Positions 22,014 to 22,176 of a DNA stretch of 22,189 nt are shown one piece after another. The notes below the pieces were generated by a model. That model had not been told where the DNA came from, made no database searches, and saw only the letters and a list, made by a program, of their open reading frames with translations. This stretch comes from Candidatus Eiseniibacteriota bacterium (GTDB taxonomy: Bacteria > ARS69). The stretch spans positions 1 to 22,189 of the forward strand of contig JBQTGV010000207.1 of the NCBI GenBank assembly GCA_052390515.1, in the 5' to 3' direction. A program made the translations under genes and the position numbers. The number at the start of each line of letters is the position of its first letter. Position 1 is the first letter of the stretch.

Positions 22014-22176
22014 GGCGATCGCCTCGTAGCTGAGGCGGCAGAACGATGTCGAGTCAGCCTGTGCCCATGCGCGCGGTGCGATCAGAGAGAGAGAGAGAGA
22101 GAGAGAGAGAGAGAGAGAGAGAGAGAGAGAGAGAGAGAGAGAGAGAGAGCAGTGCCCCGGTTCGGCTCGGGTTCAT
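22014..22176 (-). other. Frameshifted N-terminal signal-peptide segment of the M6-like gene
   Basis: ATG 22176 (GGGGG 5 nt upstream) reads MNPSRTGAL-(LS)11 and then stops at TGA 22056-22054. The protease frame on the far side of the tract reads LIAPRAWA-QADSTSFCRLSYEAIA-MQTT. Confidence 0.75.
22084..22149. repeat. Perfect dinucleotide microsatellite (AG)33 / (CT)33
   Basis: 66 uninterrupted nt counted directly. Nothing comparable elsewhere in the window. Confidence 0.95.

Follow-up and report, generated by a model that had tools for sequence, protein, structure and literature searches.

A candidate slipped-strand switch in the leader of a predicted type IX-exported M6-like protease, and slippery leader tracts across its gene family

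Phase variation driven by simple repeats is a textbook feature of host-adapted pathogens. The opa genes of Neisseria, for example, have CTCTT as the repeat unit in their leader, and the CT tracts of Helicobacter pylori are much shorter than 33 units. For oipA/hopH and sabA of H. pylori, CT repeats are described within the signal-peptide codons, where the number of units sets the frame and out-of-frame lengths lead to an early stop (PMC10564699, PMC2715451). The opa family is given as 11 phase-variable genes (PMC11868660), the secreted autotransporter proteases NalP and MspA of N. meningitidis are described as switched by homopolymeric coding tracts (PMC3723659), and tetranucleotide coding repeats are presented as the main switch element of Haemophilus influenzae (PMC2651432). 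Titles and opening lines of abstracts on repeat phase variation contained no case from an uncultured or metagenome-assembled lineage and none among cargo of the type IX secretion system (T9SS). Here we analysed a window of 22,189 nucleotides, the entire contig C207 of a metagenome-assembled genome (G000; 223 contigs, 4.27 Mb, 70% G+C, 95% complete, 2.5% contamination), which carries a (CT)33 tract at the 5' end of a protease gene. The mechanism considered is already known, while the lineage and the protein family are new for it; we regard the case as a well-supported candidate, the main added value of which lies in the family-wide and phylum-wide pattern.

The window locus is closest in anatomy to the Hop genes of H. 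pylori, as in both a CT tract in signal-peptide codons sets the frame. It differs in its product, a predicted T9SS-type M6-like protease rather than a porin-like adhesin, and in its host, an uncultured environmental lineage of 70% G+C. The likeness to opa lies in a family of paralogues that each carry their own coding repeat in the leader-peptide region and, as we propose, would switch independently. In contrast to opa, the unit varies among paralogues (CT, CTCA, TTCC) and among genera (homopolymers), and the products are large enzymes instead of small adhesins. The tracts of NalP and MspA resemble the C/G runs found in homologues from related genomes, but those proteins use type V instead of type IX secretion, are serine and not zinc peptidases, and belong to a host-adapted pathogen. 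The tetranucleotide tracts of the paralogues on contigs C5, C152 and C35 recall H. influenzae, a different organism in which the genes concerned mainly serve LPS and surface structures. None of the switch proteins of H. pylori, Neisseria or H. influenzae is homologous to the C207 protease.

A preliminary description of this DNA had placed the tract between a start codon and a protease body lying in two different frames, and our analysis with TRF and by translation recovered this layout in every part (Table 1). The microsatellite is perfect (period 2, 33.0 copies, 100% matches). From the ATG at 22176, which is separated from the tract by 27 nt, the reading passes through MNPSRTGAL, Leu-Ser repeats and DRTARMGTG to a TGA and gives a peptide of 40 aa. 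The body frame, called as a 1257-aa open reading frame from an ATG at 22013, is open upstream through the tract, as Ser-Leu repeats followed by IAPRAWAQADSTSFC..., and closes at a TGA overlapping the start codon; between this stop and the tract it contains no ATG, GTG or TTG. The third frame meets a TGA immediately 3' of the tract. Because the offset between 22176 and 22013 is 163 nt (1 mod 3), repeat numbers of n = 1 mod 3 (34, 31, 28 and so on) join the ATG to the protease frame, as had been calculated before, and the remaining repeat numbers yield short products of about 31 or 40 aa. The assembled number, n = 33, misses an in-frame length by one unit.

Table 1 Features of the protease locus and its downstream neighbour in the window (all on the minus strand).
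Feature	Positions	Strand	Basis
SD-like GGGGG, G-rich, 5 nt upstream of the ATG	22182-22186	-	sequence
Start ATG (22176-22174) and n-region codons MNPSRTGAL	22150-22176	-	translation
TGA closing the body frame upstream of the tract, overlapping the ATG	22173-22175	-	translation
(CT)33 tract, Leu-Ser in the ATG frame, Ser-Leu in the body frame	22084-22149	-	TRF and translations
Signal-peptide end in the body frame, IAPRAWA, putative AxA-type site, directly 3' of the tract	22062-22083	-	translation
TGA terminating the 40-aa ATG-frame peptide at n = 33	22054-22056	-	translation
Mature N-terminal domain, predicted divergent M6 (immune inhibitor A)-like zinc peptidase	20643-22061	-	motif, profiles, AF2
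HEYTH motif	21375-21389	-	sequence
Right-handed beta-helix region, residues 822-994	19032-19550	-	PF13229, 40.5 bits (cut-off 25.9)
C-terminal sorting domain (T9SS type A/FlgD-Ig-like)	18249-18494	-	TIGR04183, 24.3 bits (cut-off 23)
Downstream beta-helix/DUF5123-like protein, 442 aa, own signal peptide	16915-18243	-	GTG overlaps the protease stop (GTGA)

A G-run, a spacer and an ATG of the C207 type also precede the paralogues and the intact orthologues, and since the G-run and ATG match the ribosome-binding region of those paralogues and orthologues that have intact signal peptides, the SD-ATGs were taken as starts. Upstream GTG codons in the body frame were considered as starts for C5, C152 and C35 and were rejected, as they have no SD whereas the ATGs carry the G-run; C207 has no such GTG. 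An alternative start in the ATG frame is a GTG located 12 codons further upstream, on contig C18. The SD statistic across the genome (an SD at 18% of first and 8% of internal ATGs) is only weakly informative, being diluted by spurious open reading frames. Scanning the upstream region on C18 for a sigma-70 promoter and a terminator returned neither. The Sec signal peptide of the protease is complete only when the ATG and body frames are joined, and its putative AxA cleavage site was placed by alignment with the signal-peptide ends of paralogues and orthologues.

We consider it probable that (CT)33 is the slippery element of a slipped-strand translational phase-variation (contingency) switch and that the locus belongs to a phase-variable gene family. 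The gene would start at the SD-ATG, with the tract inside its signal-peptide codons, and slipped-strand mispairing during replication would add or remove CT units. Only with n = 1 mod 3 would the start and the n-region be read through into the rest of the signal peptide and on into protease, beta-helix and T9SS sorting domain, while any other length would end in one of the short peptides and yield no exported enzyme. Both the switching at the C207 locus and its rate are inferences. The Leu-Ser-only core of 22 residues is only moderately hydrophobic, which counts against the switch.

The C207 product is predicted to be a divergent M6-like zinc protease exported by the type IX pathway. In its HExxH motif, H232, E233 and H236 are invariant in the seven sequences aligned first and in 95 aligned family members, and a profile of the N-terminal domain built from the seven sequences matched 4226 proteins at E <= 0.001. 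The M6 family cut-offs were not reached by the C207 protein, which gave no PF05547 hit and 21.3 bits with TIGR03296 (cut-off 110.8); among 30 homologues scanned, four reached the PF05547 cut-off and one fell just under it. An AF2 model of the N-terminal domain from the 95 sequences had a pLDDT of 79.6 and a pTM of 0.86, and an earlier model from seven sequences (pLDDT 41) was discarded. The top four PDB hits of the model in Foldseek were InhA2 chains of B. anthracis (4yu6/4yu5; E 5e-7 to 2e-6, probability 1.00), and other metzincins trailed with E >= 0.018. The C207 domain is thus like the M6 peptidase InhA2 in its HExxH motif and has it as its best structural match (E 5e-7), but differs from it in the low TM-score (0.33-0.37), in an identity of 13-15% and in scoring below the M6 cut-offs of both Pfam and NCBIfam. 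Searching the PDB by sequence gave no match, and a homologous-protein search with the window protein returned its own product only.

The C-terminal sorting domain exceeded the NCBIfam cut-off (Table 1), with the two Pfam models scoring below theirs (PF18962, 22.6 bits; PF13860, 22.8 bits; both <27). The genome encodes SprA (TIGR04189, above cut-off, on C174), a PorU-like open reading frame on C134 (340.8 bits, under the cut-off of 420) and about 45 open reading frames with a sorting domain. As type IX cargo requires Sec export first, the C207 protease would need a Sec signal peptide, and the in-frame form is the one that would be exported. The GTG of the downstream gene overlaps the stop of the protease gene, so that premature termination in the protease leader might, through polarity, reduce expression of this gene as well, supposing that the two are co-transcribed. 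Two more sorting-domain proteins are encoded on the minus strand of the window, an S8 subtilase (1685-4144; PF00082, 103 bits) and a protein of 664 aa (4036-6030), and they adjoin the housekeeping genes for MetH (8288-12151) and a class I Trp/Tyr tRNA synthetase (6192-7193).

The preliminary description had called the tract a candidate contingency locus and had proposed scanning the genome for other 5' repeat tracts. Such a scan uncovered three more, all of them in paralogues of the protease. In these three copies an SD-ATG is followed by a non-triplet repeat and then by the remainder of a signal peptide and the protease in a different frame, as at C207, where the tract begins 27 nt after the SD-ATG and in-frame lengths are 34, 31 and so on. 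The C5 copy has (CTCA)7 located 3 nt after its SD-ATG (in frame at 8, 5 and 11), the C152 copy has (CTCA)10 at the same distance (in frame at 11 and 8), and the C35 copy has (TTCC)8 about 15 nt after its SD-ATG (in frame at 9 and 6). In the assembly none of the four loci is in frame, and one additional unit would bring each of them into frame. The part lying out of frame after each tract comprises a hydrophobic signal-peptide remainder, the conserved Cys and the protease. C5 and C152 have a 189-nt upstream cassette in common, 91% identical, yet differ in having 7 and 10 units.

Long repeats of this kind are otherwise rare in the genome. The next longest dinucleotide repeats in the 4.27 Mb reach 7 units (GC/CG) and 6 units (GA). 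When all 1478 repeat hits on both strands were filtered for cases that combine an SD-ATG and a non-triplet repeat with a frame of 250 codons or more, only these four loci had tracts longer than 16 nt. Likewise, four of the five non-homopolymer, non-triplet repeats of at least 24 nt are the tracts of the protease loci. The fifth, (CCGGCTC)6 at C221:853-894, is intergenic and lies after an S8-like peptidase gene. G/C runs of 9-18 occur at the extreme ends of contigs C136, C138, C147, C169, C4 and C81, and these are probably artefacts of sequencing or assembly and not biology.

The copy on C152 is split right after HEYGHHL by a multi-copy element of lower G+C, and the remainder of the gene is found on C143. 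The region concerned extends from about position 18447 on C152, and from about 15300 on C143, as far as the contig end in each case. The terminal sequences of the element recur at the ends of C112/C190 and of C52/C156/C163/C72, and CTAG is present at both junctions. We read this as an IS insertion at the catalytic motif. In a related genome, a homologue with an intact leader (G007:C47, L065) has a stop after AIHEYG, about 30 nt from the contig end, and its break point is the site at which the C152 copy is interrupted.

Upstream of the leaders, the motif ATCCCCCGTCGGAG is present on C18 about 110 nt before the ATG, and it recurs 96-105 nt before the ATGs of the paralogues. In the form TCCCCC[CG][TC]CGG[AC] it occurs some 96-112 nt upstream of ATGs on C5, C152, C35, C18, C58, C126 and C177, and 7 of its 23 hits in the genome are at loci of two secreted-protein families. 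It keeps a constant distance from the starts in both families and may be a 5' UTR element or a regulator site. The second of these families consists of beta-helix proteins with a C-terminal sorting domain, the N-termini of which read MSR(S/T)SL.. with intact signal peptides. Its members have poly-C between a TTGACG and a TAGATT/TACATT hexamer, namely C11 at C126:7931-7941, C9 at C177:126-134 and C7 on C58 (minus strand, upstream of an open reading frame whose match ends at C58:54231), with spacers of about 19, 20 and 15 nt, respectively. These poly-C spacers may cause phase or graded variation of promoter spacing.

We then compared the protease family across 12 genomes of the phylum including G000, all of one family. 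Four of the 11 genomes besides G000 yielded ten further homologues of the N-terminal domain. Six of the ten carry a run of 8-11 C or G situated 53-120 nt from the ATG; of these six, four are in frame (G001 C2, C9; G001 C3, C9; G007 C1, G8; G007 C3, C9) and two out of frame (G008 C73, C8; G007 C20, G11). In G000, C/G runs of at least 8 occur roughly once per 90 kb; against this background, six runs within about 1.5 kb of leaders are far beyond chance. The orthologous loci of G001 and G008 are 98.5% identical over 4864 nt, with a single gap, and this gap is in the C run and sets the frame, C9 being in frame while with C8 the ATG frame stops after 39 codons. Tract length was thus directly observed to differ between genomes at a homologous locus, although homopolymer lengths in these assemblies may include sequencing errors. 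Together with the three paralogues and the six homologues with C/G runs, this pair supports the earlier proposal of a contingency locus. The remaining four homologues have no coding tract, and one of them, in G004, is frameshifted in its leader regardless. Neither (CTCA)5 nor (CT)12 was present in the other 11 genomes, and the comparison therefore contained no orthologue with a CT tract, which counts against the switch. C/G runs are seen in three genera, and CT, CTCA and TTCC repeats in the genus of G000. A (GCACC)5 repeat on G007:C1 (L005) lies about 150 nt upstream of the ATG of an orthologue with an intact leader, between a promoter-like pair TTGACA...TAACGT and the start.

It had also been considered that orthologues might begin at the Met called at 22013 and lack the segment upstream of it. 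Instead, intact orthologues have a signal peptide and a conserved Cys upstream of the point that corresponds to this Met, and the Cys is kept in 6 of 7 alignment rows, which indicates that the called start is not the real N-terminus. The homologue P0028 (source unknown) has an in-frame leader of MSRLSVRT, (LS)5 and LLVLPGSASA, and P0032, an orthologue fragment with 88% identity, begins at the Met that matches 22013. Because gene callers begin at internal Met or Val codons, these proteases appear non-secreted in automatic annotation.

We weighed the proposed switch against four other explanations. The one that survives best, though we judge it unlikely, is that this lineage is losing its protease genes and that the repeats expanded in leaders that were already dead. 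It would fit three observations that count against the switch, namely the out-of-frame state of all four assembled loci, the IS-cut copy on C152 and C143, and the G004 homologue, frameshifted without a repeat. However, gene bodies of 1257, 1532 and 1647 codons (C207, C5 and C35) have stayed open, and four different perfect tracts lie at exactly the one place that tolerates in-frame changes of length. Furthermore, in-frame and out-of-frame leaders both occur among relatives, and in one pair the tract holds the only indel.

A second explanation, which we hold to be very unlikely, is that the DNA is fixed out of frame and that expression depends on RNA polymerase or the ribosome slipping by one repeat unit. 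Most documented slippage of this type concerns homopolymers. The event that supplies one extra unit is needed at all four loci alike, and a one-unit shift on CU or CUCA should re-pair perfectly; the probability that three loci (C5 and C152 counted as one) share this state by chance is about 1 in 9, which is not significant. The shift required is nevertheless +1/-2 at the CT locus and, with the opposite sign, -1/+2 at the tetranucleotide loci. Slippage could also act alongside DNA switching instead of taking its place.

How far n = 33 can be relied on depends on the assembly. The warning of the preliminary description about the contig end was justified, since the contig stops 40 nt past the tract. 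The final 28 nt of C207 are exactly the first 28 nt of C18, and by virtue of this overlap C18 is taken to continue the upstream region. The G+C content and tetranucleotide composition of C207, C18, C5, C152 and C35 are typical for the bin. In the run that best represents the window (X1; 85% of its sampled words, possibly the source sample), k-mer depth was 2.7-5. With a depth of about 3-5 and a contig break 40 nt beyond the tract, n = 33 is possibly off by at least one unit, and the earlier call of the gene as currently OFF, which depends on how a dinucleotide tract of 66 nt was assembled at low depth, is not secure.

Public runs were compared with the window as assembled contigs, over positions up to 22075. 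A sediment-metagenome run (X2) and a cave-metagenome run, both from other studies, contained contigs 95-99% identical to positions 21000-22075 and 21198-21782, respectively. The sediment contig extends 39 letters past 22075, which is what an assembly with k = 31 would leave on entering a perfect repeat and is only a hint. Contigs of run X4 gave no cover of the window. No related DNA was found in public metagenome contigs searched with the window protein and P0028, nor in genome contigs searched with P0028 and another family query.

These data bear on the possibility that the tract is real but mis-sized, with the dominant allele in frame and the signal peptide simply tolerating the repeat as a low-complexity segment. 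The low depth, the nearby contig end and the in-frame (LS)5 leader of P0028 would all agree with it, but the three shorter tetranucleotide tracts are likewise out of frame although they are located inside contigs (those of C5 and C35 far from any end, that of C152 at a distance of about 950 nt), and a tract built of 2-nt or 4-nt units cannot keep the frame when it slips. These internal loci and the C18 overlap make both mis-sizing, which we consider highly improbable, and an assembly fault unlikely. The latter would mean that the sequence near the contig end, 40 nt from the tract, is an artefact or a chimera, and is scarcely credible, because both flanks make biological sense, the upstream flank runs into C18 through the exact 28-nt overlap, C18 carries the paralogue-type upstream motif at about -100, and a contig with 95-99% identity from the independent run X2 runs 39 nt beyond 22075.

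Under the preferred reading, the proposed slipped-strand switch, a family with slippery tracts in its leaders, both here and in related genera, suggests that cells randomly turn individual exported proteases on and off. More tentatively, and as a view to which we give somewhat less than even weight, switchability of this T9SS-exported protease family may be a selected trait across a small uncultured phylum, with the leader having been re-equipped several times with different slippery tracts. The copies that are one unit short may then represent a majority that is silent for the protease yet a single step away from several enzymes. The selective reason, in a free-living sediment or cave bacterium, would be bet-hedging and not immune evasion, and would concern either exoenzymes that are costly and shareable or proteins on the surface that phages or predators exploit. 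Should the four loci prove to switch, this metagenome-assembled genome would offer a small, naturally occurring model in which to study why exoenzyme production is randomised in free-living bacteria, with three intact genes that each carry a different repeat unit and a question that metagenomic reads can address directly.
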